In this document: positions 1 to 17,754 of the stretch, piece after piece
Layout of the letters: the number at the start of each line of letters is the position of its first letter
How positions within the stretch are numbered: the first letter of the stretch is position 1
Origin: an uncultured bacterium
GTDB taxonomy: Bacteria > Auribacterota > JACPWU01
Direction: 5' to 3'
Assembly (NCBI GenBank): GCA_964640155.1
Contig: CAZXEQ010000001.1
Location: 396,403 to 428,402, forward strand
DNA: 32,000 nucleotides
The notes under the pieces: model-generated
What the model saw: the letters and a program-made list of their open reading frames with translations, nothing else
Told to the model about the DNA's origin: nothing
Database searches by the model: none
Program-made: the position numbers and the translations under genes

Positions 1-3000
1 GCGCAGGTTCCCTTCGTATGCGATCAAAAAGAACGGATTCATCTGATAATCCAAGAGACAGAGAAGAACCTATCTGCATTATTTTATAAGCTTTGTTCTG
101 GAGAGGTTCTTTTAGAAGAACATGATCCCATGAGCCTGGCAATAGAGGATCTGTAACTCCAAGCAAACTTTCCCAACTATTGATCATTCTTTCAATTCCC
201 AAGTTAGAATTCCAAAAAATATTATGAATATGATAAGAAGTCCATCTTGTCTTCAAAATTTCATAATTACTTGAATTTTTGAAAAATGCTTTAGCGTCAT
301 AAGTAGCGATCTCTTTTGATCCTTGTATCACTCTAATTGTATCTTTTCGGATATCCCAATGAAGAGAAATCGAAGCAGACCATGATGTCTTCTTAAGAGT
401 GTCTCTTAATAAGTTATGATCGAGAACTTGATCTCTTCTTGAGAATACAAGACCTCTCATATGATCAGCTCTTGCATCAAATCCTGAAACTCCATAAATC
501 CCTTGAAGAAGCGTTGTAAAAGCAGCGCGATAATAATGCTCTCTTACATCATCACTTTTAGCTAAAGCCGCACGTGTTAGAAAAACATCTACCTTGTCAT
601 AAGCAAACAGCACATATCCCTTCTCAAGGGTAATAGAATCTCCAACGTTGATACGCGTTTGAACAACATAATACGATCTTGATCCTAAAAGTTCCGCGTT
701 AAGCATAAAATGAAGCTTTCCAGAGTTTAATTTCTCTTTCAAATCAGCCCAAGAATCTAATCCTAAACTTTCAAACCACGGACGAAGACGCGCTTCACCT
801 CCCAAAACATCCAAAACAGAACCATTCACTTCAAACAGATCTTTTCCTCGGCCTTGTAATTCTTTAAGTCTAGTTTCTAAAACTTGATCTTGATCATGAA
901 CTGTTATATTTGCTTTTTCACTCCTTAAAATAACTTCTCTAAAAGCATTTTTCAATTCCAGAAAAAGCTGCTCTCGAGAATAAGTTAAAGCCATTTTCCC
1001 AACATAAATCTTCCCTTCTTTAACAATAATTCCTGGATCAGATTCCGAATCAATTACTACTTCAAAAGAAGATGGGTTTTTTCCCGTAAGAAATGCAAAG
1101 GCCTTAATAGCCCAATCGTGTAAAACTTCTGTGGAACCCTGTGGATGAACTCTTGCCATTCTCAATGAATCAAAGCTTAAGGAAAAATGCTCAAGAAGAA
1201 ACAAAAAATGAGAATAATCTTTTTCTAGATAATCCGAAGGAAGATGCACTTTAATTCCTATAGAATTAAGAGAAATCACAATTTTCCCTTGAAAATCTTT
1301 CAAGATACTGACATAGAATTTTTTCAAAGTTTGAATATATGGATCTTGTCCCAATGATGCAATCAATTTAGTAATCCATTTGGGCTGAAAATATGGATTT
1401 TGTCTCAGAGCATCTAACCATTTTTGCTTATCTACATCCTTCGTTTGTTTTAAAAGCTTTTCATAAAATTTTAAAACTTTTTCTTCTTCCTTTTCATTTT
1501 TCAGAATGGATTCGATTAAATTTGGATGACTCAACAAAAGTTCCCAGACTTTTTTCTTCACTTTATCCGCAATTTGTCCGGCCCTATCCTCTATTTCATC
1601 ATCCAATTGCAGAAGAGGATCCTTTTTCCAAGATTCCGTCATTCTCCTTAAATAATTCCAATCTTCCTCAAGAGCTGCTTGCTCCAAAATCCAAACCATT
1701 AAATCACTCAATTCGCCACATCCATCCTTTGCGTTTTCTCGACTTTGAGCATCTCGATTGTAAAAAGGTTCGTGCTGAACAGCATCTGTATGAGGGAGAT
1801 ACCCTATCCGCTCTATTAAAGGATGAACCAACGTCTGAGCTAAAATGGAAGCAGATACAGATTGCACAAAAGCTTCCGTCACATACACCCTAATAACCGC
1901 TTCTGCTTTTTCTTCAATTATATCTGTCCATTCATAAATAGGTCGGGTGCGCCCTTTTAATCGGAAACCCTTATCATCACCCATATTTATCACACAAACT
2001 TCTACGCGCCCTTCTTTAAAAACTTTGTGGCCTATTTTTAAAGGGACTTTCACATTTTGACCAAACAAAATAGCGCGAGCAATTTTTTTATGAAGACCTT
2101 CATAAAAAGGAGGAATATCTGAATTCCTCAAAGCTTCCGGAATTTTTTTCTGATTCATTTCATCACGTTGCATCACACGAATGGGATTTTTAGCAGCCAA
2201 ACCTTTCAGCTCTTTCGCTTCCAATTTAGTTAAATGGGCCTCCCCCGGAGCATGTTTAGTAGCAATTGCAGCTTGCCTTTGTCCCAAGCGTAAGCCTTCT
2301 TGAAGTAAATTCTGGAGATTACTTCGAGCTAAAGGTTCTTTTAAAAACGCCCCTATCTTTTTTGCCAATTCGTTGGGATCAAATCCTGACAATCTTCTCA
2401 TTTCCAAAATATTTTTTTGAATCAAATCTTCTATACGGAGAACGAATAAATGAGTTGAATGATTTCTAAGTAAATCTATCAAAGCATAAATAGCGTTGTC
2501 TATTCTCTCACCCTTCAAATCATTCAGAATCACTTCTAAAGTATCTCGAATAGAGACATGCTGAAATTCAAGCTCCTTATCATATTCATTTTTGATAATG
2601 ATATCCGCATCTCGACGTTCTTGATCTATTGTATAACGAAAAATAAAATTTCTTGTTTTCGGAAAATCTTTTACAAAGCGAACTTCCTCCATTTGAACTT
2701 TGCGGATTGATTCTAAAAAAGCCTTTTTTGCACTTTTAAAATATTTCTTACGATTTTTTGGAGTTCTTGCACGCTCAGATTTAAGAATCCATTTCAAGAC
2801 AGACGAAGCTAAGTCCTCTGACAAAGATTCTTCTGTTAATTTCCTTAACTGCTGAATATTATTAGCTTTTCTTGAAAGTCGGGCCAGTTGAAGTATATTT
2901 TTTTGCTGCATGAAAGGCCGAAGCCTTTCAACCAATATATCCTCATGAATTTCCATAAAAACATGAATATCTGCTTCCATAGGCTCAGTGGTTAAATCTG

Positions 3001-6000
3001 AAAATTTGTCTCGTCCATTTAATGAATACGCTCCTTCAACAATGACCAGTTTCTTTCCCTTTTTCTTTGCCTGTTCAACTTCTTTTTCCAAAGAAGATCG
3101 CTTTGAATAATCATCTGCATGAATAATAAAAATTTCAGAGGGTTTAATATCATTCAAACCCCATTGGGCAATTGCATCCACCCATGCTGTTTTTCCTGAT
3201 CCGGGGCGGCCTCCTACACGCACAATAACAGGCCCCTTTCTTTTAGACTTTATCGCGGATACTTTCATAAATAAATCGCCATAAGCCTCTCTAACTTCTT
3301 TTCTCTGAACTCCCCAACGGTTTTTAATCTTTTTACGATAAGGATATGTTCCTGACCGTAAGGTTCCTTTCCTTAATCCAAATCCATCTCTTTGTTCAAA
3401 CCTTTCTATATCGTCTATCGTTAATATTCCTTCTTCTCCAGGAAGTGTCACATGTATATCTCTTTCTGTTATCCATCTTTCACCTTTAGCCCCATGCAAA
3501 ATTTTATGACAAGCAATTGAAAGAATGCTCGCGATTTTTTGGAAACGCTGAAGCATCACTGAATCTATATTTTCATCTACATCTAATTCTGTCTGGGAAG
3601 CTGAAGCAACTTCTTTTGGAAGGGGTTGATAAGCATCTATTCCTTCTTCCATATAAGCATTCAAAACATGTTCTAAATCTGATAATGTTTCGACTCTATT
3701 GCTCTGCCCTTTAAGTTGCGGAATTTCCTCAGATAAGACTTTATTGATAAGCTTTCTAGCCTCATCATAACCAAACGCATCCATGACTCCATCTCCTAAG
3801 CAACGGACCGAGATATTGCTTATCCTACTGTATTGAAAGTTTAAAATATCTAATACTTGCGCTAAAGCCATCGGTTTTTCAGAAACTCGATCAAGATCCA
3901 CAAAAACAACACGATAATCTCCTTCTGCGGTTTTAATCATCATGATATTTTCTGGGGTAGGATCATCAATGATATGCCCATTTAAAACCTTCCACATGTC
4001 TAAAACGCCAGAAACAGCAGAGCGATAAAGCTTGTCCATTGCTTTAAAATAATCGGCTTCTGAAATAACTCGTTGGGCCTTCTGTGTTGCAAGATCTAAG
4101 CATAGTCTCTTTAAAGAAACTGCCTTTACCTTGCCTTCAGAATAAACTGTCACTTTCTCTCCCCCATTTAACTGTACATCCACATGAGGACCAATACTTG
4201 GATGCATACCTGCTGCTTTTAAAGCAAAACCAGCTTCTCTAGCCCTACGACGAGCTTCAGGAGTAACATCAGTTTGAGACCTAAAAACTTTCAAAATAAA
4301 AATATATTCATTTTTCTGAGAAATTTGTGCTCCCGATTGAACAACCACTTCGTAAACACGCTTTCTACTACCTTCATCTCCCCACAAACGAATTTCAATA
4401 GAAGCAATATCTTCAGGAGCTATAGAAATGCCATAAATAGAACGTAACGCCTCAATCACCATCGGTTGAACTTTTTCTCCTTGAAATCTCATAGTTTTAA
4501 TCAGTGCTCTTTGAATTACTTCTGTGTCACGATCTCCAATTTTTTCTTGGCGAAAATGCATTTTGGAAATTAATATATCTTTGAACTTTGAATCTTCAAC
4601 CCCAGACGCCTCATATCGATCGTCTAATTCTTTTCGAGCAGCTTGATAAAACAAACCCTTTGGATCATTGAAATGAATAGGTTCTACATTTTCTAATTCT
4701 TCAACACTCATACAAGCAATTTCACATTGAGCCAAGGCATGTGCAGAAGTCCCTTCTAAAGCTGCATCTACGGCACAAGCAATGGCATGAGCATGTTGAA
4801 TATCTGTTTCTGTAAATATTTGATCTTCTCCATCGAATTTTCCCTTATTAAAAATTAAATCTGCTATAATTTTTGCTTCAGTATATTCATGCCGTCTCAA
4901 AATTCTTTTCGCCTCTTTACCAATATCATCCTGATCCATTCTTTTTAATAAATCTTTACGAGTTTTAATTTTTCGACTGAGGAGATCCCAATAGGCCAGA
5001 TCTCCTCCATGATCTTTACTTGGTTCAATTTTCCCCAAAGGGTAAAATTGACTTTCACTTCCTTCTTCAATTGCTAAATTGGCATACTCTGTTTTTGGAG
5101 TTTTCTTTAAAACTTTTAAAACCACAGCTACTCTTTTTTGTAAATAGATCTCTTTTTCTTGAAGAGTTTCACCTGGAGGCCAATTTTCATCTTTTCGACC
5201 TTTGGCTGGGATTTTGAGGGCGGAAGGTTTAGTAGCACGTACCAGAGAAGATTCTTCGGGATATTCCAAAAATTTTCCTGCTACATCCTCTTTTAATTTA
5301 TCAAGAATAGGATTCCTAATTTGACGAGTACACGTGATATTGCCCATCCTTTTAATCACTTCAAATATAGCCAAAAATGCTTTGACCTGAGAAATCCCTT
5401 CATCGCTGCCAAAATAGCCCTTAAGAAATTGTTCAGCTAAGCTTTGCCCTTGAGCTGGATAAGCTTGATATAGGTGCATAGTGATAAACCAAAGCTCATA
5501 GTAAAGATATCCCAAGTCTTGAGCTGCCGTTAATCCCTCTCTTTTGATAACAGAATCTAAATCATGCAAAACAGGTAGCTGACCATTTAGGATAGAAATA
5601 TTGTTATAATGCAAAAATCGATGAATAAATCCTGAGTCATGAAATTGTCGAACAACTCTTCCATATGCCATTAAAGAGTGCGGATCAAAATGCTTAAATC
5701 TTTTATCAACTTCCATCCCATCACTTAAACCGAAAGCAATAAAAGCTGTTTTTCTTCCATTCAATTCGACTCCTGGATACTCTCCCCAAACCAGTGGATA
5801 TTTTGTTTGAGCAACGCCCGAAAGAGAAGTCCGAGGAGATAAAAGAGTTGCCATTTGATATAACATTTGAGTATTTAAAAATTCTTCTAACACCCCTTTT
5901 AACCAAGCACCTCCTTGTGGGATATCACTATAGGGAATTCTCATTAAATTCCCGCCCAAATCAAATCCCATAGACTCACCCACCCCCGATCCTGCATGAG

Positions 6001-9000
6001 CAATTAAGGGTTTTCTTGCATCAAAAACAACTCCTTTTGCTTGAACATCCTTCATGGGATTATCATCATAAAGGAAACGAGGCAGATACTGAGAACGGTC
6101 TCCCAAAGAAATTTCAACAGAACGAGTATTCTTTTGTGTTTTAACATTTGTGGAAGCACAAACTGCAATTTTCAAAATCATATTTCTAACATTTTGATTT
6201 TTAATTTCATCCACATGAATTTCTTCTGCCTCTTTTTCTCCAATCAATAACTCTTTATTTACATATAGAGTAATCAAACGATCTCCTTGAGGGACAATAA
6301 CTCGCCTTGTGAATCTAAGAACCCTTTCTTTTAAACGTTTTTCTTGCTCTTCAATTACAGCGAGATAAAATTTTCTTTCAACATCATTTGGATGATGTGG
6401 TTGTATTTGACTAAGCTCTTCATCACTCATTAAAGGAATCACTAATTTCATCAAAGGATGTAAAGCCCCATTGATATGGGCGTCCAAAGCAGAAGTGATG
6501 GCATGTCGTCGATCACGATCGGACTCCTGAAAAGTTCTTTCACCTTCAGGTTTTTCCAAATCTTCGTCAATCAATTGACGAAGTAAAACATTTTCGACAT
6601 ATTCATGACGACGAAGAATTTCGATAATTTTCTGAAATCTTGCTGGGTCTGTTTTTTCTAATGCATAGATGCCATCATAAAGATCTTCACGGACATAAAT
6701 AGCTTGAATATCCCCACTGTCCCAAAACTTACAAAAGGCAAAGTCATTGTTATGTTCTGGAGGGAATTTATTTCTTTCCAAACGTTCGATCTTTAACCCT
6801 TGATAAACATTGGGATCAAGCCTTTTCAAAACCTCATTCACTTGATCTTCGCCTATGGGTTGAGATATTTTTTTGCCTTGGCCTGGGATCGCAAAAGCCC
6901 CTTCTTTTTCTAAAGAGATTCCGAAATTCCAAAGATAATGAAGAAATAATGTCAGTACAAAAACTCCTACTAAAACACCTGGGTTTATTGCAGAGGTAAA
7001 ACTCAAGAGTGCTAGAGGAGAAAAGATAAAAAGACCATTCTTAAATTGAAGCCAAAGCATTTCAAGCTTTGCATCTTTACTTCCTGGCAAATGAAGAACA
7101 GAAAAGATGATAGCCGTCACAAAGACTGGAACAAAAAGTGCCAGAGGAGCTACTCCTAGTACAGGATTCAGTGCCAAGATAAGAGGCAAACTCACCAGGA
7201 TTGAAAATGCATTTTCAAACGCGGGGCCCCATTTTGGATAACCAGGCAAATGCTTTAGCCATAGGAAAAGGGCTTTCCTTCCCCCGCGAAGTTCTTCAGA
7301 TGTAGCTGACACCACAACAGCTTGTGGTGAAACTACTTGACCTAAACTTTCTGGAGAAACTCCTTTTTCAACTAAAAATGCTTTCAATACCACTTTAAAA
7401 GGAGGAACAAGTGCAGGAGTTTGCTCATCTAACATTCTATAAAAATAACTATCTCCCCTCCCAGCTTTATCCAATAACGGATAAGCTGCTTGTAGCATCT
7501 CCAATCCATGCTCAGGATACAGTGTTAAAACACCTTGAAAAATCTCGTATAACACCCATCTTAGCTGATCTCTTGACTGGAAAGCGGTTAGATGTCCTGC
7601 CAATATCAGCAGAATATCTACCAGTTGTGTATAGGTGCTTACCAAATCTACATCAATTAATTTTCCTTCAATTACATCTACTTCTCGAGAAATTTCACGA
7701 GAAGTCATTTCTAAAATTTTTCTTATTTTATCTGCTGTTATTTGATGAAGAGCACCATCTTCGTCTTCCATGTGAGAGTCTAAAGCATGCTCTCCTAAAA
7801 AATTTACAACTACATTTCCTCCATGAGGGTCATCAATAAAAGACTTTCGCCCTGTCGCTTCCCAAGCTCTTAAATAAATTCGGACAATATTACGTAAAAG
7901 AATGGATCTCATCATTAAAGCTTCTGTCGAGGAAAGATCTCTAGATGCCTCTAAATTTCTTACTTGTTGAACAATCCTTGACCATCTCAAGCCTTTAACT
8001 ACATCATCGCTCATGACCCATACTTCCCCTCCCCCAAGTGTTCCTTTTTCAGGAGACCAGGTAGCACCCAACGCAGGATAAAGACCTTTTTCATAAAGCA
8101 TTCTTGCCATTTCATTCATCATCTGAATTTGAAAATTCCCCCATTGTTGAACAACCGCGAGAAAGAAATTAGGTTGTGTTACTTCGATAACGATTTTATG
8201 CTGTTTGCCAGTGCTTAAGATCACTTTCACTTGATAAACATGTTTCATGCCATCTTGATCTACTTTAAAGCCAATCACTTCAACAGGTCCTTCTCCTAAC
8301 TCAAGTCCATGTGTGTTCATCAAAGTTTCTTCAATAAAATTATCTGCGAAGGCTGCTTCTAAAAAATGATGATCTGGTTCTTTAACCGTTGATGATCCAT
8401 GACTCCAAATAATTTGTCTCTGACTTCTTCGAGCAAGCTCAGTTTGCACAGCACTATAAAAAGCTTGATCTTGATCGTTAGGATGAGTTTCTTGAATTTT
8501 TTGTAATTCACTTTTTCTCATAAGCAAAATGACATGTTTCATAAGAGGGTGAAAAGTGGTAGGGTTAGGATTTTCTAAACTTCCACTTCCAATAGCAGCA
8601 TCAACCGCAGAGGTTAAAAAATGCTTTTGAGCTTCATCACCTGTCGCTAAAACACCTTCTCGAATCAATTGAGGAATTAAAACATTCTCAACATATTCAT
8701 GCCGTTTAATGATTAATTGAGCAACAGGATTTTTTTGAATGCGATTCCAAAGACTTCGACGAATTTGAACTTTGTAAGTTTTTTTGTCATTGCGAGCCGC
8801 AGGCGAAGCAATCTCAACCAATCTTGCAAAATCATCTCCCTTCCCATCAAAAGATTCGACAATTTCAAATGGGAGATTTTCATAATCGTGACTCCCATCT
8901 CTTTTCAAACGTTCCAAAATCGCATCAATTTTTGCAGCGGCTGGAGGACCTTGAGCATGCGTTTCACCTGAGCCAGGGGCTTTGAGAGCTCCTGGTCTTG

Positions 9001-12000
9001 GAGAGGCCGTTGCCTGTCTTCCTCTAATTCCATCAAACCAAAATGCCATGAAATGACAACTTGGAGAAAATAAAGTTTGAATATCACTTTGAGTCAGTAA
9101 TTCTCTAAAATTTAAAGTAGGAGGTTTTTTCTTAAGTGCTGCATCGATTCTTCCGGGATCGTCAACTTTTAGACTTTTTTGTGAAAGAATTTCCCAACGA
9201 AGCATGACTTGAAAAAAAGGGGACAAATCTGGATTTCTTAAAGCTCGATCTAAAATCCAAAGTCTTTCACGGCGCTCACTGAATCTTCCCTCACGTTCAC
9301 AAAATTTTTGCAAAGAAAGATGAAATTGGCCCAAATCACTTTCAGTCCAGAAATCACCTGGAGCGAAAAGATAGGACGCCTCTCTTCTTACAATCTCTGC
9401 CTCAAGATGAAGATATTTATAAATAGCATCAAAATATTTTTTTCGAAAGGCTTCGTCGCTGACTAGCTTGCGATCTATCTCATCGGAACTTGTATATCTT
9501 GGGAAAAGTTCGTTTTTTAAAGCTTGAAATTCTTCCCTCACTTTTTTTTGTTCAATCATTTTCCCCGCCCGAATACAAAACATTTTCAAAGAAGCTGAAC
9601 GTTCTTTGGAATAGCGTAAAAACTTTGCTACGTGAACTCGGATCACATTCCCAGTTACTTCAATCGGAAAAGATTCGTCCCGCTCTTCGGGTTCTGGCGT
9701 CTCATTTATTTCAAAATGAAAAGAAGAATTTTTATTTTGAATAGCTTCTAGTAATATTTCAAAATCCTCAGAGAAAGATGGACTTTCTGGTATTTGTCTT
9801 TTTGGCATTTGTTGAGCATATTTTCTCAAAATCCTAAGAATTTTATCTTTCGGTGTCTTATCTCTATCGATCTGCCAATTATGCACATAATGAAACAAAA
9901 TTGTGATACCCGTAACCCCTATCAAAAGAGGAATCTGTGCCACAGAAAAACCAAGAAACGTCACAACAATCATTAAGGGGGAGAATAATGCCCCTCCCAT
10001 CCAAAAATATTGAACAAAAAGTTCCCACTTAGAACCAGAACCTGATTTAGGGAAATGAAATAAAGAGAATAGAGTTGGAAATCCTAGAGCAAAAACAAAA
10101 TGATAAAATAAATCGCTTCTAGTTATAAAAGGAAGACCCGTCACAGCAGTGAGAATCGCAAAGAGTCCAAAATTAAGTAGAATTACAAAAACATTTTCAA
10201 AGGTCGGGCCCCATTTTTCATAATTTTTTAAATGTCTAAGCCAAGGGAAAAGGGCAAATTTTTCAAAAACAACTCTTGCCTCATCAGGCCTTAAAATATT
10301 TTTTGCAAAACCTATCTCTCCTTTTAGCACCTTATCCATATCTACAGCATCCAAACATAAACTTAATAGAAAAGGTTTACCAACACTTAGTTTTTTTTCT
10401 ATCCGAGAGCGTGAATTTGAACCCAATCCTGATGTTTCTTTTTCTAGTTCAAAACGAATCACCACTTGAAAGACAGGAGATAGTTCTGGATTTTCCAACA
10501 TCCGATCAAGGGCAAAAAACCTTAAACTTACATCATCATAAGGACGACCTCCATTCCATCTAACAACATCTGATGTTGACTGGTTAGGATCGTGAGCATA
10601 ACCATGGTTTTTAAAATACTCTAAACAAGCACGATCCTTCTGCATTCTCAACGTCAAATTATTTTGACTCCAAGTAAAATAGAGGCCTTGCAACCAAGGA
10701 TCTGCTTTGAAATTCTCATAAACTGTTTGAGCTGTTTCTTCCTTTGGATAAAGTTTCTTTTTCTGCTGTATTAACTCTCGCATCTTTTCTTGTTGTTCTA
10801 AAAAACCAGAAAAGCTAATGCAAAAAATCTCCAAATCTAAAGAACCCCCTTCATCCCCCGGCATAAAAGCGGCATAATCTAAAACAACTTTACCTTTTAT
10901 TAGTTGAATGGGAGGACTTGATGCTTCTGGTTTAGGAGTAACACCCAAAAACGGACCATTCTCTACTTCAATATCACCCGCTTTCAAGAGCTCTATCAAA
11001 TAATAAAATTTTTGTTTCTCAGTAAAATCATTTGTTTTGTCGTGAAATTTCTGGAAAATAGCTAAAATTTCTAATTGTGTATTGTCTAAATTGGGTACTT
11101 CTATAGATTGATGTTCAACCTTTCTTTCAACACTTTCACCATTCATAACTTTATTCCAAAGAGACAAAAACTCATTCCAAAAGAAATGAAGGGTAAATGA
11201 AAGAGCAAGAACCCATCCAAAAATAATTTGATTCATAATCAACGCAGGAAAACCTAAAACAAAAACAGATAAAATGAGAGGAGAAAGAATAAACAATCCA
11301 CTTATCAGCTGATCATGAAAAACCTTACTTTTTTCATTCCATGCAGTCCCCGGTAAATGAGACAAAGCAAATACGAATGGCAAAGCTATTGCTGAAACAA
11401 TCCGAATCATCGGACTAGGATGGTTGATAGCTTCAATACAGAAAGATTTTGTTGCAGCAACCCAAGGGCGAGATTCATCTAAAATTCCCCACTCAAAGAG
11501 CTTCATTGCAATCGCAAAAGGCGCTGCACTCCATCCAACTGCCCACAAATTTTCAAAAATGGGGCCCCATTTTGAATAACCAGGCAAATGCTTAAGCCAA
11601 GGGAAAAGGGCTTTATCATCTTGAATTGTTTGAGGGTTTCTTCTTTGAAGCTCTTGTTGAACCGCATTATAAAATTCTTTTCGAGTATCATTCGGATGCT
11701 TCTCTTGGATGGCCTCAAGCTCTGATTTTTTCATAACTTGAATCACACGCTTCATCAAGGCATGGACAGAATTGGGTTTTCTCTGGTCAATACTCCCATC
11801 CCCAATTCTTTCATCTACAATAGAGGCAAGTGTATGTGCTTGGGTTAAATCATCCGAATTCAAAGCGCCTAGCCTAAACAATCGAGGAATTACAACATGT
11901 TGTAGCCAAGCATGACGTCTCAAAATCAATTGAGCATCAGAATCTTCTTTAATTTGATTCCAAAGATGTCGATGAATTTTAAGAGTAGGTTTGAATTGAT

Positions 12001-15000
12001 GTGTTGAGGGATCTTGAACAGAAATCAATCGAACTAAGCTACCTTCGTCTTCTAAAGAATCCACAACCTCAAAAGGAATACACGCATATTCAGCGATATC
12101 TTCTTTTCGAAGAGCTGTAAGCATCGCATCAATTTTTGCAGGATCAGGAGGACCTTGAATGCGTGTCTCTCCCTGCCCAGGAATTTTAAAAACAACTAGA
12201 TCTAAACCCTCTTGCCATCTCTGTGTTTCCTCTGATTTTCTCATCTGAAAATCTTTAATGCGTTCTGCTAACTCCAGGGGATCCATTTTTCCATCGAATA
12301 GGTATCCTCGGGGAAGTTTTCCCATAATCTCCTCAAGTAATTGCGGATTGTCCGGAAATTCCTCCAAGAAAACTTCAAAAAGAAAGTCCATATTCTCGCC
12401 CGAAAATCTATGAAAAAATTCATCGGCAATCAAAAGAAGGATTTTGACGATATCATCAGAAGGAATCACAACATCTGCATCTATTAGGTAAAAGCCTCGA
12501 GGGAAATCTGCAATTAATCTTTCAATATTCTCTTGTGTCACAACTTGATCTTTAGGCCAGTCCACCATTAAATTTCCAAGAAAAGAATCAAAAATAAACA
12601 TTTTTTTCTCAGAAGTTTTCCATACATGAATATAAAATCGAGCTAAAGCTTTAAATAAATCTCTCCTTAATTTGTAATACACCTCAGCGGACATTCTTTT
12701 TTCATCAAATTCTTTTTTCAATGCTCTGATTAAATTCCCTCCATTTTTACCTTCAACATATTCCTCACTGAAAACCCAGACTTTTTTTGTATGCCTGACT
12801 TCTTGAATTTCTCCCTCCCACATTCCTCCAAAACCTGGATAGCACCCCTTTTCAGACCACATTTGAGTTTGTTCTACAATCATTGAGGATTGTGTATGGT
12901 GAGCACTTTCATCAAACCCTTCGTAAAATCTAGGTTGTGTGACTTTAAAAACAATTGTTTTTATTCCTCCCCCCTTCAAAGGCAATATCAACTGATAAAC
13001 ATGTTTCATTGCATTTTTTCGCAAAGAAACAGGAATAACTTGAATTGGAGCTTGCTTATCCAAATCAACTTCTTCTCCATAAATATTAATAAGAGATGTT
13101 TCGAGAAAACCATCCTTTAAAGCTCTCAAAATGAGATCTCGATCCCGGGGAGGAGTAGGTGCAGCAATTCTCTTCCACTCTAAACGACGAATGACTTTTT
13201 CCCTTTCTCCTAGCTCACGTTTAGCTGCTTTCTGAAAGGCTCCTGCTGGGTCATTCGGATGCCTGCTTTTAACTGCTTTTAATTCTTCATTGTTCAACAA
13301 AGGAATCGTATGCTTCATTAAAGCATGATAAGAAGTTTTTTCTAGTTGAGCATCAATACGGGAAGCAATGGCATGGGCTTCTCTAACTTGATCTTCTTCT
13401 AAAGTTTCAAAATCAGATTTTCCAACATTGGCAGGCAAACCTCGCTTTAAACTGGGAACAAGCACATATTCAATATATTTACGACGTATCAAAATGAGCA
13501 AAGCCTCTTGATCGTTTTTAATTCGATTCCAAAGATGACGATGAATTTTAATTTCCCCATATTCATGATCATAATAAGCAAGATCTTGAGCTAGCCCCTT
13601 AGGCAATACATCGACGACATCAAAATAACTAGAAAGATCTTCATTCGATGTTTTCAATTTTTCGAGTTCTCGGAATTTTTCTGAATCTCGCCACTCGTTT
13701 AAAACAAAGTCTACCGCATAGTTCATTCTTCCTTCGGGAATCGGGTTTTTGACCAGATCGCGTCTTTGAGTCATTTCTGGGATATAGGAAGTCAAAAATT
13801 GGTAAGCTTCTCTTCCAAGAGCTCCTCCCCCATTTTCAAAAACAGCTTTTGAAGCCACACGTAAAAAGTCTTCGGCAGGTATCATTTGAAGGTGATAAGA
13901 GCCCATGGCTCCATCGGCTAAAACTTGAATGCCCTGGTCCAGCCACAATGCCTTTGAGCTTTTAGAAACAAAACTTAAAACAAAAGCCTCTTTCCCTTTC
14001 TTCACTAAAACAAAACGCGCTTTCCCAGACACAATCTCTCTAGGGAAAAATCGCAAATCAGCAATGTCAGGGAAATCTTTTTTCAAGGCCGCATGCCTTT
14101 TTGCCAAAACTTCCGCAATATTGGAAATTTGTCCTGCTATGGCTTCTCCTCCTGCGGTCATTTCAAATTCTATACGAAGGGTGGACTCTAATTGTCTGGC
14201 GACATCGGCATCACCAACCAGAGCATGCAAAAGAGAGCCTTGATGAAGTGTATGGGAAGTAGAAGCTAACTTTTGCTCAAATGCTGAGGTTTTCCCTAAC
14301 ATTCGAGCACGATAGAGAGCTTCCGTCTTCTGGTCTACTCCTTGGGTTTGAGGTGTAATGACGGTATATGAAATATTTTCATTTTCAAAAAACTGTGTGA
14401 AAGAATCTGTATGAAATCCACCTGTGACAAGGACGACAACAGATCGGTTTGTTTCTTTCATCCTTTTCAACGTGTTCTCGTAAAGGATGTGATCTCTTTT
14501 TTGAGCCAATTCATAAAACTTCTCGAATGGGGAAAGATCAAAAGAGACAGGACCTGCAATTTTTTCTAACCATAATATTTTTTCATCTTTTATTTCTAAA
14601 AATTCTTTTAACTCTTTTCGACTTAACTTAAGAGAAATCAGTTTTTCAACAAGACAAAGAGTTTGTACTTCTTTCCAAAATTGCTTTTCTTCAGAAGATT
14701 GAAACAACTGATCCGCTACAAGAAGTTCAAGCTGTTTTATTTCATTAGAAATTTTTGCATGATCAAGTTTTGCCCCCAACTTCACAAAGTCAATGTATTG
14801 AGACAAGTCCGGATAAGATTTAAGCGTCTCTTCTCCTACCAAATTTTTCATCTCTGCAAAATAAACATCGTCCTTTATACGCCCCAGTCGATATTCCAAC
14901 CCCTTACGAATCCATTCTTGAAGCTCTTCTCTTGGGAGTTGTTGACTCAGTTTCTCATTAAGCAAATTTCTTTCTTTTTCTATCTTCTCAGGTTTTAACT

Positions 15001-15799
15001 CTTTCTGAAGTTGCATCATTTTTTGAAAACGCGTCAGATTAGGGAAGGAAGAGATTTGGACAGAATGAGACATTTTAAAAAGAAAGTTTAAATAACTTTT
15101 AAAAGAAATATTACCTTTTTGATAACTCCTATATTTTTTAAGAAAAGACTGTTTTTCAGAAGAAATATTTTTTAAAAAATCTCTATTTTTTGTTTCGCAG
15201 ATTTTCAACCACTGTTTTGCCTGCTTTTGAAAAGCTGCGCAAGATTGATAAGCCTCTTTATTTTCCAAATAAATTTTTTCATCCTCAATCCCAAAAATTT
15301 CTGGTTTCCATTCTGGATGAATAATCGAAAAAAATTCTGGACCTGTGAATTTAGCTTTGCTCAAAAAATAATCAGCCGCATCTTCCTTAATCTGCCGTTC
15401 GGGAAAACTCGAGAAAAACTCAGAATCAATAGGTCCCGTGGCTCCCTCCATTCCAATTAAAATTCCCTTTTCAATTTCACCCGGCGCATTACTTTCGAGA
15501 AAACCATAAATACGTTCTAAAATCTGAGAAATATGTTTTTGAGCCTGAACATCCACGTGAAGATCTTGAATATGAATCACCCAAGGGGCAGAATCACGAG
15601 ATAAATCACTCCAAGATTTTTGAATATTCCCTAATTCAGAAGGAAGAGACAGCTCTCTTTTGGGGGCTATGCCACTACTTAATCTATTTGTAGACAATGA
15701 ATTATGACTTTCCTCAAGAAGCGCACAAACATCTTGAGAAAATTGATTAAAAACAAAAAAAAGCAGTACCAATATCTTCAAACCAGAGTTATTTTTCAT
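1..15799 (-). CDS. Giant multidomain membrane protein; N-terminus complete, C-terminus beyond the left window edge (>5,266 codons in window)
   Basis: ATG at 15799-15797, with an alternative in-frame GTG at 15835 just after an in-frame TGA. Reading the minus strand in the frame whose codons sit on plus-strand triplets starting at positions equal to 2 mod 3, I found no TAA/TAG/TGA down to position 2. The ORF track has no minus-strand ORF in this frame, consistent with an ORF lacking a stop in the window. All listed ORFs in 1-15.8 kb are 60-166 aa and in other frames. The product begins MKNNSGLKILVLLFFVFNQFSQDVCALL (signal/anchor-like) and reads as coherent protein with recognisable repeated modules throughout. 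Confidence 0.85.
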   Translation of the reverse strand, partial: MKNNSGLKILVLLFFVFNQFSQDVCALLEESHNSLSTNRLSSGIAPKRELSLPSELGNIQKSWSDLSRDSAPWVIHIQDLHVDVQAQKHISQILERIYGFLESNAPGEIEKGILIGMEGATGPIDSEFFSSFPERQIKEDAADYFLSKAKFTGPEFFSIIHPEWKPEIFGIEDEKIYLENKEAYQSCAAFQKQAKQWLKICETKNRDFLKNISSEKQSFLKKYRSYQKGNISFKSYLNFLFKMSHSVQISSFPNLTRFQKMMQLQKELKPEKIEKERNLLNEKLSQQLPREELQEWIRKGLEYRLGRIKDDVYFAEMKNLVGEETLKSYPDLSQYIDFVKLGAKLDHAKISNEIKQLELLVADQLFQSSEEKQFWKEVQTLCLVEKLISLKLSRKELKEFLEIKDEKILWLEKIAGPVSFDLSPFEKFYELAQKRDHILYENTLKRMKETNRSVVVLVTGGFHTDSFTQFFENENISYTVITPQTQGVDQKTEALYRARMLGKTSAFEQKLASTSHTLHQGSLLHALVGDADVARQLESTLRIEFEMTAGGEAIAGQISNIAEVLAKRHAALKKDFPDIADLRFFPREIVSGKARFVLVKKGKEAFVLSFVSKSSKALWLDQGIQVLADGAMGSYHLQMIPAEDFLRVASKAVFENGGGALGREAYQFLTSYIPEMTQRRDLVKNPIPEGRMNYAVDFVLNEWRDSEKFRELEKLKTSNEDLSSYFDVVDVLPKGLAQDLAYYDHEYGEIKIHRHLWNRIKNDQEALLILIRRKYIEYVLVPSLKRGLPANVGKSDFETLEEDQVREAHAIASRIDAQLEKTSYHALMKHTIPLLNNEELKAVKSRHPNDPAGAFQKAAKRELGEREKVIRRLEWKRIAAPTPPRDRDLILRALKDGFLETSLINIYGEEVDLDKQAPIQVIPVSLRKNAMKHVYQLILPLKGGGIKTIVFKVTQPRFYEGFDESAHHTQSSMIVEQTQMWSEKGCYPGFGGMWEGEIQEVRHTKKVWVFSEEYVEGKNGGNLIRALKKEFDEKRMSAEVYYKLRRDLFKALARFYIHVWKTSEKKMFIFDSFLGNLMVDWPKDQVVTQENIERLIADFPRGFYLIDADVVIPSDDIVKILLLIADEFFHRFSGENMDFLFEVFLEEFPDNPQLLEEIMGKLPRGYLFDGKMDPLELAERIKDFQMRKSEETQRWQEGLDLVVFKIPGQGETRIQGPPDPAKIDAMLTALRKEDIAEYACIPFEVVDSLEDEGSLVRLISVQDPSTHQFKPTLKIHRHLWNQIKEDSDAQLILRRHAWLQHVVIPRLFRLGALNSDDLTQAHTLASIVDERIGDGSIDQRKPNSVHALMKRVIQVMKKSELEAIQEKHPNDTRKEFYNAVQQELQRRNPQTIQDDKALFPWLKHLPGYSKWGPIFENLWAVGWSAAPFAIAMKLFEWGILDESRPWVAATKSFCIEAINHPSPMIRIVSAIALPFVFALSHLPGTAWNEKSKVFHDQLISGLFILSPLILSVFVLGFPALIMNQIIFGWVLALSFTLHFFWNEFLSLWNKVMNGESVERKVEHQSIEVPNLDNTQLEILAIFQKFHDKTNDFTEKQKFYYLIELLKAGDIEVENGPFLGVTPKPEASSPPIQLIKGKVVLDYAAFMPGDEGGSLDLEIFCISFSGFLEQQEKMRELIQQKKKLYPKEETAQTVYENFKADPWLQGLYFTWSQNNLTLRMQKDRACLEYFKNHGYAHDPNQSTSDVVRWNGGRPYDDVSLRFFALDRMLENPELSPVFQVVIRFELEKETSGLGSNSRSRIEKKLSVGKPFLLSLCLDAVDMDKVLKGEIGFAKNILRPDEARVVFEKFALFPWLRHLKNYEKWGPTFENVFVILLNFGLFAILTAVTGLPFITRSDLFYHFVFALGFPTLFSLFHFPKSGSGSKWELFVQYFWMGGALFSPLMIVVTFLGFSVAQIPLLIGVTGITILFHYVHNWQIDRDKTPKDKILRILRKYAQQMPKRQIPESPSFSEDFEILLEAIQNKNSSFHFEINETPEPEERDESFPIEVTGNVIRVHVAKFLRYSKERSASLKMFCIRAGKMIEQKKVREEFQALKNELFPRYTSSDEIDRKLVSDEAFRKKYFDAIYKYLHLEAEIVRREASYLFAPGDFWTESDLGQFHLSLQKFCEREGRFSERRERLWILDRALRNPDLSPFFQVMLRWEILSQKSLKVDDPGRIDAALKKKPPTLNFRELLTQSDIQTLFSPSCHFMAFWFDGIRGRQATASPRPGALKAPGSGETHAQGPPAAAKIDAILERLKRDGSHDYENLPFEIVESFDGKGDDFARLVEIASPAARNDKKTYKVQIRRSLWNRIQKNPVAQLIIKRHEYVENVLIPQLIREGVLATGDEAQKHFLTSAVDAAIGSGSLENPNPTTFHPLMKHVILLMRKSELQKIQETHPNDQDQAFYSAVQTELARRSQRQIIWSHGSSTVKEPDHHFLEAAFADNFIEETLMNTHGLELGEGPVEVIGFKVDQDGMKHVYQVKVILSTGKQHKIVIEVTQPNFFLAVVQQWGNFQIQMMNEMARMLYEKGLYPALGATWSPEKGTLGGGEVWVMSDDVVKGLRWSRIVQQVRNLEASRDLSSTEALMMRSILLRNIVRIYLRAWEATGRKSFIDDPHGGNVVVNFLGEHALDSHMEDEDGALHQITADKIRKILEMTSREISREVDVIEGKLIDVDLVSTYTQLVDILLILAGHLTAFQSRDQLRWVLYEIFQGVLTLYPEHGLEMLQAAYPLLDKAGRGDSYFYRMLDEQTPALVPPFKVVLKAFLVEKGVSPESLGQVVSPQAVVVSATSEELRGGRKALFLWLKHLPGYPKWGPAFENAFSILVSLPLILALNPVLGVAPLALFVPVFVTAIIFSVLHLPGSKDAKLEMLWLQFKNGLFIFSPLALLSFTSAINPGVLVGVFVLTLFLHYLWNFGISLEKEGAFAIPGQGKKISQPIGEDQVNEVLKRLDPNVYQGLKIERLERNKFPPEHNNDFAFCKFWDSGDIQAIYVREDLYDGIYALEKTDPARFQKIIEILRRHEYVENVLLRQLIDEDLEKPEGERTFQESDRDRRHAITSALDAHINGALHPLMKLVIPLMSDEELSQIQPHHPNDVERKFYLAVIEEQEKRLKERVLRFTRRVIVPQGDRLITLYVNKELLIGEKEAEEIHVDEIKNQNVRNMILKIAVCASTNVKTQKNTRSVEISLGDRSQYLPRFLYDDNPMKDVQAKGVVFDARKPLIAHAGSGVGESMGFDLGGNLMRIPYSDIPQGGAWLKGVLEEFLNTQMLYQMATLLSPRTSLSGVAQTKYPLVWGEYPGVELNGRKTAFIAFGLSDGMEVDKRFKHFDPHSLMAYGRVVRQFHDSGFIHRFLHYNNISILNGQLPVLHDLDSVIKREGLTAAQDLGYLYYELWFITMHLYQAYPAQGQSLAEQFLKGYFGSDEGISQVKAFLAIFEVIKRMGNITCTRQIRNPILDKLKEDVAGKFLEYPEESSLVRATKPSALKIPAKGRKDENWPPGETLQEKEIYLQKRVAVVLKVLKKTPKTEYANLAIEEGSESQFYPLGKIEPSKDHGGDLAYWDLLSRKIKTRKDLLKRMDQDDIGKEAKRILRRHEYTEAKIIADLIFNKGKFDGEDQIFTETDIQHAHAIACAVDAALEGTSAHALAQCEIACMSVEELENVEPIHFNDPKGLFYQAARKELDDRYEASGVEDSKFKDILISKMHFRQEKIGDRDTEVIQRALIKTMRFQGEKVQPMVIEALRSIYGISIAPEDIASIEIRLWGDEGSRKRVYEVVVQSGAQISQKNEYIFILKVFRSQTDVTPEARRRAREAGFALKAAGMHPSIGPHVDVQLNGGEKVTVYSEGKVKAVSLKRLCLDLATQKAQRVISEADYFKAMDKLYRSAVSGVLDMWKVLNGHIIDDPTPENIMMIKTAEGDYRVVFVDLDRVSEKPMALAQVLDILNFQYSRISNISVRCLGDGVMDAFGYDEARKLINKVLSEEIPQLKGQSNRVETLSDLEHVLNAYMEEGIDAYQPLPKEVASASQTELDVDENIDSVMLQRFQKIASILSIACHKILHGAKGERWITERDIHVTLPGEEGILTIDDIERFEQRDGFGLRKGTLRSGTYPYRKKIKNRWGVQRKEVREAYGDLFMKVSAIKSKRKGPVIVRVGGRPGSGKTAWVDAIAQWGLNDIKPSEIFIIHADDYSKRSSLEKEVEQAKKKGKKLVIVEGAYSLNGRDKFSDLTTEPMEADIHVFMEIHEDILVERLRPFMQQKNILQLARLSRKANNIQQLRKLTEESLSEDLASSVLKWILKSERARTPKNRKKYFKSAKKAFLESIRKVQMEEVRFVKDFPKTRNFIFRYTIDQERRDADIIIKNEYDKELEFQHVSIRDTLEVILNDLKGERIDNAIYALIDLLRNHSTHLFVLRIEDLIQKNILEMRRLSGFDPNELAKKIGAFLKEPLARSNLQNLLQEGLRLGQRQAAIATKHAPGEAHLTKLEAKELKGLAAKNPIRVMQRDEMNQKKIPEALRNSDIPPFYEGLHKKIARAILFGQNVKVPLKIGHKVFKEGRVEVCVINMGDDKGFRLKGRTRPIYEWTDIIEEKAEAVIRVYVTEAFVQSVSASILAQTLVHPLIERIGYLPHTDAVQHEPFYNRDAQSRENAKDGCGELSDLMVWILEQAALEEDWNYLRRMTESWKKDPLLQLDDEIEDRAGQIADKVKKKVWELLLSHPNLIESILKNEKEEEKVLKFYEKLLKQTKDVDKQKWLDALRQNPYFQPKWITKLIASLGQDPYIQTLKKFYVSILKDFQGKIVISLNSIGIKVHLPSDYLEKDYSHFLFLLEHFSLSFDSLRMARVHPQGSTEVLHDWAIKAFAFLTGKNPSSFEVVIDSESDPGIIVKEGKIYVGKMALTYSREQLFLELKNAFREVILRSEKANITVHDQDQVLETRLKELQGRGKDLFEVNGSVLDVLGGEARLRPWFESLGLDSWADLKEKLNSGKLHFMLNAELLGSRSYYVVQTRINVGDSITLEKGYVLFAYDKVDVFLTRAALAKSDDVREHYYRAAFTTLLQGIYGVSGFDARADHMRGLVFSRRDQVLDHNLLRDTLKKTSWSASISLHWDIRKDTIRVIQGSKEIATYDAKAFFKNSSNYEILKTRWTSYHIHNIFWNSNLGIERMINSWESLLGVTDPLLPGSWDHVLLKEPLQNKAYKIMQIGSSLSLGLSDESVLFDRIRREPA
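2590..3260 (-). other. P-loop nucleoside-kinase-like domain (uridine kinase / PRK family-like)
   Basis: GPVIVRVGGRPGSGKTAWV (Walker A, nt about 3188-3214) ... IFIIHADDYS ... KKLVIVEGAYSL ... ADIHVFMEIHEDILVERL ... RRDADIIIKNEY. The order and spacing match the Udk/PRK layout as I remember it. Confidence 0.6.
3880..4400 (-). other. Protein-kinase-like domain 4 (motifs most complete)
   Basis: RKRVYEVVVQSG...EYIFILKVFRS (beta3 Lys) ... EARRRAREAGFAL ... NGHIIDDPTPENIMM (catalytic loop) ... YRVVFVDLDRV (DFG-equivalent). I re-derived this codon by codon from 3886..3975. Confidence 0.6.
4600..4960 (-). repeat. HE-x-x-E/HPND module copy 5 (HFND variant)
   Basis: GKEAKRILRRHEYTEAKIIADL ... IQHAHAIACAVDAALEG ... 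CMSVEELENVEPIHFNDPKGLFY. Confidence 0.55.
5500..6060 (-). other. SelO/YdiU-like pseudokinase-fold domain with substituted active-site residues (tentative)
   Basis: DLGGNLMRIPYSDIPQGGAWLKGVLEEFLNTQML...SPRTSLSGV ... KRFKHFD ... GFIHRFLHYNNISILNGQLPVLHDLD is colinear with the remembered E. coli YdiU segments [33 protein letters not shown]...PTTRALSIV ... LRFGHFE ... [21 protein letters not shown]. The LKGAG lysine and the TDN aspartate are not conserved here. Confidence 0.45.
6340..6900 (-). repeat. Linker motif plus HE-x-x-E/HPND module copy 4
   Basis: AIPGQGKKISQPIGEDQVNEVLKRL ... ARFQKIIEILRRHEYVENVLLRQL ... RRHAITSALDAHING ... HPLMKLVIPLMSDEELSQIQPHHPNDVERKFY. Confidence 0.6.
6920..7275 (-). 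other. CPBP/Abi-like intramembrane protease core 3
   Basis: ALFLWLKHLPGYPKWGPAFENAF ... IIFSVLHLPGS (FxxxH) ... LTLFLHYLWNF (HxxxN). By my count the motif spacing is about 43 and about 52 residues. Confidence 0.55.
7600..8260 (-). other. Protein-kinase-like domain 2 (ABC1/UbiB- or APH-like catalytic loop)
   Basis: MKHVYQVKVILSTGKQHKIVIEV ... GRKSFIDDPHGGNVVVN (compare HxDxHPGN of atypical kinases) ... GKLIDVDLV (DFG-equivalent). Confidence 0.55.
8440..8985 (-). repeat. Linker motif plus HE-x-x-E/HPND module copy 3
   Basis: KAPGSGETHAQGPPAAAKIDAILERL ... LPFEIVESFDG ... VQIRRSLWNRIQKNPVAQLIIKRHEYVENVLIPQL ... KHFLTSAVDAAIG ... HPLMKHVILLMRKSELQKIQETHPNDQDQAFY. Confidence 0.6.
9870..10255 (-). 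other. CPBP/Abi-like intramembrane protease core 2
   Basis: ALFPWLRHLKNYEKWGPTFENVF ... TLFSLFHFPKSG (FxxxH) ... ITILFHYVHNW (HxxxN). Confidence 0.5.
11165..11615 (-). other. CPBP/Abi-like intramembrane protease core 1 (about 4 TM helices)
   Basis: ALFPWLKHLPGYSKWGPIFENLW (motif 1-like, E-N in place of E-E) ... LPFVFALSHLPG (FxxxH) ... LSFTLHFFWNEF (HxxxN). Hydrophobic helices lie between the motifs. Confidence 0.55.
11640..12190 (-). repeat. Linker motif plus HE-x-x-E/HPND module copy 2 (variant RRHAWLQH)
   Basis: KIPGQGETRIQGPPDPAKIDAMLTAL ... IPFEVVDSLED ... LKIHRHLWNQIKEDSDAQLILRRHAWLQHVVIP ... QAHTLASIVDE ... HALMKRVIQVMKKSELEAIQEKHPNDTRKEFY. Confidence 0.6.
12440..13020 (-). other. 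Protein-kinase-like domain 1 (catalytic loop degenerate)
   Basis: MKHVYQLILPLKGGGIKTIVFKV ... FIFDSFLGNLMVDW ... FYLIDADVV. It is colinear with kinase-like domains 2 and 4, but the loop reads D-S-F-L-G-N instead of DDPxxxN. Confidence 0.45.
13180..13560 (-). repeat. HE-x-x-E/HPND module copy 1 (degenerate: RRKYIEY)
   Basis: The translation reads EIKIHRHLWNRIKNDQEALLILIRRKYIEYVLVPSL...REAHAIASRIDAQL...HALMKHTIPLLNNEELKAVKSRHPNDPAGAF. It is colinear with the four other copies. Confidence 0.6.
14340..15600 (-). other. N-terminal domain of the giant protein, paralogous to the N-terminus of the 1511-aa protein; tentatively erythromycin-esterase/ChaN/TraB-GumN/TIKI-like
   Basis: The motifs WVIHIQDLHVDVQAQ, ILIGMEGATGPID and VVVLVTGGFHTDSFTQFF..ISYTVITPQT align with VIMIQDPHCVIDAQ, FIAVEGAQGEIN and CALIVGGFHIDGLKQLF..ISYVVLTPTT in the 25256..29791 product. 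The His...Glu...GGxH layout resembles the bipartite signature of the EreA/ChaN/TIKI superfamily. That comparison is from memory, not a search. Confidence 0.45.
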
Positions 15800-15885
15800 C
15801 AGGAATAAAGGTCTTTGTTGGGGTATTTTTCGCACTCATATATATGCCATATGAATAAGCGTAAGTCAAATCCCAAAGCAGAAAA

Positions 15886-16471: not shown

Positions 16472-16587
16472 AGAACAGAGGCATGAGGCACGAAGCAGAA
16501 AGCAGGATTAAAGATTGATTCGTTTTTCATGCTTCCTGTTTCATGCTTCTCTCTTCAAAAATACTTGAAATAAATAAAAGAAAAACC

Positions 16588-17754
16588 ATGAAAAACCGAA
16601 AAAACATTCCCATCTCCACTCGTGTTGAAGCCCTTCCACCATCAGGTATTCGGGCTTTTTTTGATTTAGTTATTGGGATGAAAGACATTATTTCACTTGG
16701 CGTCGGAGAACCCGATTTTGACACGCCCTGGTCTGTTCGTGAATCTGCCATTTTTTCAATCGAACATGGGCACACCACTTATACTTCCAATAAAGGACTT
16801 TTAGAATTGCGTAAAGCCATTGCGCAACATTTGAAGAAAAATTTTGCTCTCGATTATGATCCAGAAAATGAGATTTTAATTACAGTGGGCGTCAGCGAAG
16901 CCATGGACTTGGCCATTCGCGCTCTTTTAAATCCAAAAGAAAAAGTGATTATTCCAGAACCTTGTTATGTCTCCTATCATCCTATGGTTTATTTAGCTGG
17001 GGGGGATCCTATTTATATTCCCACACAAAAAGAGAACGGATTTAAAGTTCAGCCTAAAGATATTGAAAAAACTTCAAAAGAAAAACCTAAAGCCATGATT
17101 TTCAATTACCCCTCTAATCCTACAGGTGCTTCTTATGATAAGAACGAACTTAGCAAGTTAGCAGAAGTATCAAAGAAAATGGATTTGTATGTCATCAGTG
17201 ATGAGATTTACAGCGATCTCTCTTATGAGAAGCCTCATACTTCTTTTGCAAGCTTTCCTGGAATGAAAGAACGAACATTACTTTTGAATGGTTTCTCTAA
17301 GGGTTATGCCATGACGGGTTGGCGCATTGGTTACGCTGCTGGACCTCAAGACTGGATTGCAGCTATGACCAAAATCCATCAATACACCATTATGTGCGCT
17401 CCAATTATGGGACAATGGGCTGCCTGTGAAGCTTTGAAAAATGGGCAAACTGCGATTTCGTTGATGAAGAAAGAATATGAACGCCGCAGAAATTTTGTTA
17501 TCGAAAGTTTGAATGAAATGGGCCTGAATTGTCACAAACCTGAAGGGGCTTTCTATGCATTTCCATCTATTCAAAAAACGGGTATCAACTCGATGGATTT
17601 TGCCAAACGTTTGCTTGAAGAGCAAAAGGTTGCTCTGGTTCCAGGCACTGCTTTTGGACCTTCAGGAGAAGGCTTCGTAAGAATATCCTACGCCACAAGT
17701 TTCGAAAAACTCAAAGAAGCAATGAAGAGAATAAAAATATTTATTAATTCATAA
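16588..17754 (+). CDS. Pyridoxal-phosphate-dependent aminotransferase, class I/II (aspartate aminotransferase-like)
   Basis: Typical features: STRVEALPPSGIR near the N-terminus, NYPSNPTG, and the PLP-lysine motif NGFSKGYAMTGWRIGY. The ORF is open from the ATG at 16543, but the ATG at 16588 (MKNRKNIPIS) gives the usual N-terminal length. Confidence 0.85.
   Translation: MKNRKNIPISTRVEALPPSGIRAFFDLVIGMKDIISLGVGEPDFDTPWSVRESAIFSIEHGHTTYTSNKGLLELRKAIAQHLKKNFALDYDPENEILITVGVSEAMDLAIRALLNPKEKVIIPEPCYVSYHPMVYLAGGDPIYIPTQKENGFKVQPKDIEKTSKEKPKAMIFNYPSNPTGASYDKNELSKLAEVSKKMDLYVISDEIYSDLSYEKPHTSFASFPGMKERTLLLNGFSKGYAMTGWRIGYAAGPQDWIAAMTKIHQYTIMCAPIMGQWAACEALKNGQTAISLMKKEYERRRNFVIESLNEMGLNCHKPEGAFYAFPSIQKTGINSMDFAKRLLEEQKVALVPGTAFGPSGEGFVRISYATSFEKLKEAMKRIKIFINS

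Follow-up and report, generated by a model that had tools for sequence, protein, structure and literature searches.

A predicted pseudokinase-type domain of the protein-kinase-like fold in a giant membrane protein of an uncultured bacterium of the Auribacterota

Proteins of the kinase fold from which the catalytic HRD aspartate is missing, yet in which the nucleotide-binding residues persist, have repeatedly proved to be enzymes in disguise or switches under nucleotide control. SelO and SidJ are two such folds without the HRD aspartate: SelO carries out AMPylation with ATP held in a flipped orientation, and SidJ an adenylation-dependent glutamylation. Giant proteins are described from Omnitrophota as multi-transmembrane mosaics, and text searches of published accounts of them find no mention of pseudokinase or SelO-like domains. 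Here we analyse a stretch of 32,000 nucleotides (contig CAZXEQ010000001.1, positions 396,403 to 428,402; in what follows, the window) from an uncultured bacterium of the Auribacterota lineage JACPWU01, in which a giant gene encodes a domain that a preliminary description had named SelO/YdiU-like, with substituted catalytic residues. The predicted structure of this domain places it in the kinase superfamily; the domain belongs to a family of its own that lacks the catalytic aspartate throughout, and its closest profile-level relatives are the Kdo/WaaP kinases rather than SelO.

The region flagged at the outset, positions 5500-6060 on the minus strand, corresponds to residues ~3259-3445 of the giant protein and forms part of a larger unit, residues ~3180-3530, for which the model shows a bilobal protein-kinase-like (PKL) domain related to Kdo/WaaP, Bud32/PRPK, RIO and Hanks kinases. 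AlphaFold2 (AF2), given an alignment of 41 family sequences, returned a model with a predicted local distance difference test (pLDDT) score of 89.7 and a predicted template-modelling (pTM) score of 0.89; the model from a three-sequence alignment, at pLDDT 39, was unusable. Searched with Foldseek against the PDB, the confident model gave 107 matches at E ≤ 0.001, and all the rows listed were kinase-like, among them Bud32/PRPK, WaaP, the pseudokinase domain of RNase L and ROCK; the best 1000 chains gave the same picture of kinase-like neighbours. Of the domain's 351 residues, only ~180-190 superpose on Bud32 and RIO. SelO lies close to the model and covers the most residues of the top-ten rows, yet Bud32 and WaaP match better, and SelO appears neither among ranks 1-50 of the first Foldseek listing nor among the best 60 PDB chains for the family profile. 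Judged on the model, SelO does not stand apart structurally from other atypical kinases.

The domain has relatives in other proteins. A word-indexed search recovered only the giant protein itself and one relative of 4263 aa (P0003, 52% identity), and a genome of the same genus holds a copy of the giant protein at 81% identity. A full HMMER search over 1.84 billion representative proteins found 46 proteins at E ≤ 0.001, 10 of them at E ≤ 1e-10, with lengths from 288 to 5531 aa; many are giant, and some are free-standing at 288-475 aa. Members with a source name are proteins from metagenome-assembled genomes (MAGs) of Candidatus Omnitrophota/Omnitrophica, with one from Margulisiibacteriota. Neither the giant protein, searched in three pieces, nor the domain alone matched a kinase or SelO family in Pfam, and ten small or mid-sized family members had no qualifying Pfam family. 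Across 23 members the matches to kinase-type Pfam families were all sub-threshold: two to Kdo (best E 0.0098), one to Pkinase (0.0028) and one to SelO (0.039). NCBIfam matches were likewise sub-threshold, Kdo kinase at 0.021 and Bud32 at 0.08 for the window's domain; in other members they named Bud32, Kdo kinase or LanKC. No model of Pfam or NCBIfam qualifies for the family, which is uncatalogued.

Conservation, counted in the alignment of 41 family sequences (alignment A5), picks out the residues that a nucleotide-binding kinase fold would use. Invariant are K3267, in the motif AKGVVFD, G3295, and D3425, in HDLD; nearly so are R3238, G3268, P3306 and G3308 (in PQGGA), E3318, H3399, G3402, N3412 and Y3474. 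H3405, H3409, H3424 and an aspartate or glutamate at position 3427 (31/41) are often kept, and three arginine positions are conserved: R3186 in 34 of the 41 sequences, R3238 in 38, and an arginine following the beta5-like strand in 29. The loop equivalent to the catalytic loop of kinases has the form H-x-[FYW...]-L-H-x-G-N, and its third position, where kinases have the aspartate of HRD or HxD, is acidic in none of the 41 sequences: it holds phenylalanine in 11 (F3407 here), tyrosine in 10, tryptophan in 4, serine in 4 and other residues in the rest. By the usual sequence definition, then, the family is a predicted pseudokinase family.

Profile comparisons set this family closest to the Kdo kinases. 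We aligned 81 SelO sequences (that of E. coli and 80 loci at 47-93% identity), 30 Kdo domains and 20 Pkinase domains of the phylum, which is represented in the collection by 79 species genomes, and the three kinase-like modules of the giant protein that keep the aspartate. With hhalign, the family profile matched Kdo at 97.6% (E 4.3e-12 over 242 columns) and Pkinase at 96.2% (E 2.3e-9); against SelO it reached 11.5% (E 2.6e-3, in a colinear alignment of 260 columns), and against the sibling modules 12.1% (E 2.4e-3). As controls, Kdo against Pkinase gave 97.9% (E 4.1e-13), SelO against Kdo 31.9% (E 4.9e-4) and SelO against Pkinase 0.4% (E 0.14). Hidden Markov models (HMMs) told a similar story at E ≤ 0.01, with 22 of 35 family domains matched by Kdo, 12 by Pkinase and none by SelO; on the window's domain the Kdo HMM scored E 6.8e-5. 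The Pfam model PF06293 (cut-off 21.3 bits) did not match the window's domain, and its two weak matches among the 23 members reached at best E 0.0098 and 15.8 bits. A phmmer search of the PDB returned one suggestive match, the Ser/Thr kinase PpkA at E=0.034, over the catalytic loop, where HRD aligns with HRF and DFG with DLD. The profile of 23 family sequences had 329 PDB matches at E ≤ 10, down to 3e-4, and of the best 60 all but a single ribosomal protein were protein kinases, the alignments spanning alphaE, the catalytic loop and DFG. A feature search of the ESM Atlas ranked a cluster named 'MchC protein' first (score 0.90; PF02696 on 35% of its members) and Kdo clusters at 0.86-0.87; by the tool's own calibration the top family is probably wrong (4 of the 10 best agree, and the 162 shared features fall below the mark of 170), so that it serves as a lead only. 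In the phylum itself, Kdo/WaaP-family kinase domains are frequent: 28 of 41 sampled genomes carry them, often as several tandem domains in a protein of 500-1000 aa, and none was found at E ≤ 1e-8 in the window's genome or its three family relatives.

The resemblance to SelO that had drawn attention to the domain is genuine at the level of this one sequence. The four segments quoted in the preliminary description are all present and colinear in the window's protein and in the actual sequence of E. coli K-12 SelO: PYS-x4-G-x-A-x-L-x5-E-[FS]-L, P-[RT]-T-x-LS-x-V, RF-[KG]-HF-[DE] and H-x2-[LM]-x2-[ND]-N-[IM]-S-[IL]-L. Pairwise BLASTP of the domain against this SelO gave 26.6 bits and E=0.001, with 23% identity over 142 residues, and the Smith-Waterman score of 59 was attained by only 2 of 2000 shuffles (mean 35.3, standard deviation 5.0). 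The other 34 family domains have a median score of 36 against SelO, equal to the shuffle mean, with a runner-up at 47, and the orthologue P0003 lacks both the RFKHFD and the LGGN segments. The similarity is therefore beyond chance for this pair, yet peculiar to the window's sequence and not common to its relatives. PF02696 (cut-off 22.8 bits) has no match at E ≤ 10 in the 387-aa stretch holding the domain or anywhere in the genome (2.44 Mb, 97% complete), and none at E ≤ 0.001 in the 79 phylum genomes, a search in which control genomes were recovered. A narrow SelO HMM, made from enterobacterial sequences of at least 79% identity, scored the giant protein at -1.8 bits, its sole match lying at residues 3287-3329. 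We infer that the resemblance is that of one superfamily, to which some coincidence specific to this sequence has been added. What stands of the original assignment is the kinase superfamily and the motifs themselves; the SelO family does not, with PF02696 negative, the low hhalign score and the better fit of Bud32 and WaaP to the model.

The substitutions read into the domain fare differently one from another. The lysine of the SelO motif LKGAG was thought to be replaced in LGGN, and BLASTP does pair E. coli SelO K107 with G3294, in a column that the family does not conserve, yet the register is ambiguous here and the invariant K3267 stands 28 residues upstream. The reading of YNN as a substituted SelO TDN fails, the column in question (N3411 here) being glycine in 18, asparagine in 10 and aspartate in 3 of the 41 family members. 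Since the supposed substitutions occur throughout the family, they are family characters rather than the decay of a single copy; the suggestion of an inactive or re-purposed copy holds only in another form, in that the HRD aspartate is missing from every family member. Work on SelO (6eac) reportedly found the gamma-phosphate of the flipped ATP held by a lysine and two arginines; of that arginine pair the domain has R3379, and the partner is absent.

Two registers of the N-terminal lobe compete for the position of the ATP-binding lysine. In the Kdo register, the beta3 lysine comes to lie, with low confidence, no more than ~11 residues from K3267, and residues ~3287-3301, an ordered beta-hairpin in the AF2 model, are an insertion before alphaC; a similar insertion separates beta3 from alphaC in RIO kinases. 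In the Pkinase and SelO registers, H-x-G-x-G (3280-3286) becomes the glycine-rich loop, the hairpin becomes beta2-beta3, and the lysine of VAIK or LKGAG falls at R3299. We favour the Kdo/RIO register, with reasonable rather than strong confidence, because it is the stronger match, accords with the best structural neighbours and would pair an invariant lysine with a near-invariant glutamate. The SelO-type lysine may therefore not be substituted in this domain at all.

The domain is one part of a protein with a modular architecture (the coordinates of all features are collected in the table). The giant open reading frame (ORF) contributes 5278 aa inside the window and stays open for 5289 codons in the genome, with its stop 35 nt past the window's start; the database entry P0002 is 5277 aa long, and translation probably begins at the ATG at 15797-15799. 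Self-comparison resolves an HE-x-x-E...HPND module present five times, three aspartate-containing modules of kinase-like type, and three membrane blocks, each of about four helices by hydropathy. The HPND module is ~145 aa long, follows the pattern HRHLW...RRHEYVE...H-A-x-x-S-x-x-D...HALMK...HPND...FY and has no Pfam match. The flagged domain stands immediately after the fourth copy, in the slot that a kinase-like module takes behind three of the others. Within the family of 46 proteins the HPND module was found (E ≤ 0.001) only in the giant protein and its closest relative, P0003, so that it does not generally accompany the domain. The three aspartate-keeping modules have an x-D-x-x-x-x-x-N loop, as FIFDSFLGN, IDDPHGGN and IDDPTPEN, and after these loops come IDAD, IDVD and VDLD; taken as one set, the modules match Pkinase at 84%, Kdo at 70% and SelO at 0.4% in hhalign. 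In the second of them, IVIEVTQ stands where the others have VFKVTQ or ILKVF, so that its beta3 lysine is apparently a glutamate. The P-loop segment matches nSTAND_NTPase5 (0.013), Zeta_toxin (0.039) and AAA (0.077), all below the Pfam thresholds, and other family proteins also bear AAA_17, ADK, Zeta_toxin, HATPase_c and methyltransferase domains.

Table. Coordinates of the PKL domain, its candidate functional residues and the other features of the window (residue numbers refer to the giant protein)
Feature	Position in window	Strand	Residues	Remarks
Giant ORF	2..15835	minus		single open frame, no internal stop
N-terminus of giant protein, Sec signal peptide-like	15722-15799	minus	13-38	MKNNSGLK, hydrophobic run, VCA
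HPND module copies (five)	13186-13615, 11621-12059, 8408-8846, 6317-6757, 4598-5041	minus		self-comparison
HE-x-x-E...HPND module, fourth of five copies	6317..6757	minus	3027-3173	self-BLAST and module HMM; directly upstream of the PKL domain
Kinase-like module with Asp	12365-13195	minus	~880-1156	
Kinase-like module with Asp	7435-8410	minus	~2476-2800	
Kinase-like module with Asp	3805-4588	minus	~3750-4010	
PKL domain (predicted)	5246..6298	minus	~3180-3530	AF2 model, fold matches, 46-protein family, hhalign; includes 5500-6060
Candidate ATP-binding lysine	6035..6037	minus	K3267	in AKGVVFD; invariant, 41/41
Position aligned with VAIK/SelO beta3 Lys in the Pkinase/SelO register	5939..5941	minus	R3299	basic in 14/41 only
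Putative alphaC glutamate	5882..5884	minus	E3318	PQGGA motif before it; Glu 39/41, Asp 2/41
Arginine in KRFKHF	5699..5701	minus	R3379	matched in the preliminary description to SelO RFGHFE; at or next to the family Arg column (29/41) after the GFVILG strand
Catalytic-loop equivalent, H3405-R-F3407-L-H3409-Y-N-N3412	5600..5623	minus	3405-3412	HRD-Asp position is Phe; N3412 kept in 37/41
DFG-equivalent, H3424-D3425-L-D3427	5555..5566	minus	3424-3427	D3425 41/41
P-loop NTPase segment, GGRPGSGKT	~2950-3250	minus	~4195-4290	sub-threshold Pfam matches only
Class I/II aminotransferase	16543-17754	plus		adjoins the giant gene
Large ORF, 677 aa	21422-23455	plus		no Pfam family at E ≤ 0.001
Large ORF, 1511 aa	25256-29791	minus		no Pfam family at E ≤ 0.001

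Taken together, we think that the domain is probably an ATP-Mg2+-binding, pseudokinase-type module that serves as a nucleotide-dependent switch or scaffold without base-assisted phosphotransfer. ATP-Mg2+ would be bound through K3267, E3318, N3412 and D3425; classical base-assisted phosphotransfer would be absent, since all members have an aromatic residue, or some other that is not acidic, in place of the catalytic aspartate; and the domain would work as one module within a giant membrane protein of mosaic build, alongside the three aspartate-containing kinase-like modules, the P-loop NTPase segment and the three four-helix blocks. Several observations weigh against this interpretation. The strongly conserved H3405, H3409, H3424 and D/E3427 could provide an alternative catalytic residue, which would make the domain a possible enzyme; the N-lobe register differs between the profile alignments, Kdo against Pkinase and SelO; and the signal-like N-terminus together with the apparently even number of helices per membrane block (from hydropathy) would, taken literally, leave every ATP-using module on the far side of the membrane from the cytoplasm. 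A rival reading, with SelO and SidJ as precedents, is an active enzyme of non-canonical chemistry, in which nucleotidyl or phosphoryl transfer would proceed through a residue such as H3405, H3409, H3424 or D3427 or be assisted by the substrate. Nucleotide- and Mg-binding residues that are invariant or nearly so, with the base absent, are the pattern of SelO; several arginines and histidines are conserved, free-standing homologues are under selection, and the top named ESM Atlas cluster carries PF02696 in part. We regard such an enzyme as possible, if on the doubtful side: a specific sequence link to SelO is absent, the Atlas calibration marks its top family as probably wrong, no conserved acidic residue occupies the position of SelO TDN, and many pseudokinases retain their nucleotide-binding residues without catalysis. 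That the family performs a non-kinase reaction as an undescribed kinase-fold enzyme family in the giants of Omnitrophota-like ultra-small bacteria, nucleotidylation or adenylation-dependent ligation in the manner of SelO, SidJ and viral NiRAN, seems to us unlikely.

Two further explanations carry less weight. The domain could be a decayed relic that no longer binds nucleotides, with the protein's three other kinase-like modules as its intact counterparts; the domain does lie in a slot, after an HE-x-x-E/HPND module, that is held three times by aspartate-containing modules, and its own catalytic aspartate is gone. The hhalign score against these siblings, at 12%, argues that it is not a recently decayed paralogue of theirs, and it belongs to a 46-protein family of its own that includes free-standing members of 288-475 aa. 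Active-site-like residues that are invariant across this family (the lysine, glycine and aspartate) or nearly so (the glutamate, asparagine and histidine) indicate purifying selection, and a relic is for this reason very unlikely. A diverged member of SelO/YdiU (PF02696), with its catalytic lysine and aspartate substituted, we consider even less probable. The four colinear motifs, the BLASTP and shuffle statistics, the 260-column hhalign alignment (E=0.0026) and the single member among 23 that touches PF02696 (E=0.039) all speak for it. They are outweighed by the failure of PF02696 in domain, genome and phylum and of the SelO HMM in the family, by an hhalign score below even that of the control of SelO against Kdo and far below that of Kdo itself, by the better fit of Bud32 and WaaP to the model, and by the fact that the likeness is not inherited: relatives score at the level of shuffled sequence, and the 52%-identical orthologue is without two of the motifs.

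Beside the giant gene, the aminotransferase has as its closest named relatives proteins from MAGs labelled Chlamydiae (75% identity) and Omnitrophota (63-66%), and an 81%-identical copy is on record as P0180. The contigs of P0180 and P0003 are both recorded as 28,968 bp, and the neighbourhood of giant gene and aminotransferase may thus be conserved.

A pseudokinase-type module of this kind is of interest on several counts. The giant membrane proteins of Omnitrophota-like bacteria are largely unannotated, and for one of their modules it gives a first lead to function. The family is also compact and well-folding in prediction, and some of its members are free-standing and could be expressed. The case illustrates, moreover, how a motif match can flag a superfamily correctly and yet name the wrong family.

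How, then, does the domain compare with the systems nearest to it? With the AMPylase/UMPylase SelO/YdiU (PF02696; 6eac, 6iii, 6k20) it shares a kinase-like fold without the HRD aspartate and the retention of the glutamate, the asparagine and the metal-binding aspartate; of these, the alphaC glutamate and the metal-binding aspartate of DYG, present as E3318 and D3425, are common to the whole kinase superfamily. The signatures GHQFG...LGDGRA, LKGAG and NTDN, in contrast, are unconserved in the family, and we found no evidence in the domain of the C-terminal helical domain of SelO. The Hanks Ser/Thr kinases (PF00069) are matched by the family profile in PDK1, PERK, PknA, PpkA and others and score 96.2% in hhalign; HRF-L-H-Y-N-N resembles their HRD-L-K-P-x-N, and HDLD their DFG. 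Unlike them, the domain has no HRD aspartate, no GxGxxG loop of canonical length and no activation segment with APE, and the position of the VAIK lysine is unconserved. Bud32/PRPK, the KEOPS kinase/ATPase, and the RIO kinases resemble it in a compact C-lobe from which a long activation segment is absent, and the sub-threshold NCBIfam matches name Bud32; these kinases retain the catalytic aspartate, however, and show no significant sequence match to the domain. The best profile-profile match is to Kdo/WaaP/KdkA (PF06293; WaaP 6dfl), which has the same H-x-x-L-H-x-x-N loop followed by a metal-binding aspartate and, in the favoured register, an insertion between the lysine strand and alphaC. From these kinases the domain's family differs in the loss of the HxD catalytic aspartate in all 41 sequences (F3407 aligns with the Kdo consensus H-x-D), in the ordered hairpin (~3287-3301) and PQGGA motif before alphaC, and in its setting within giant multi-domain membrane proteins.

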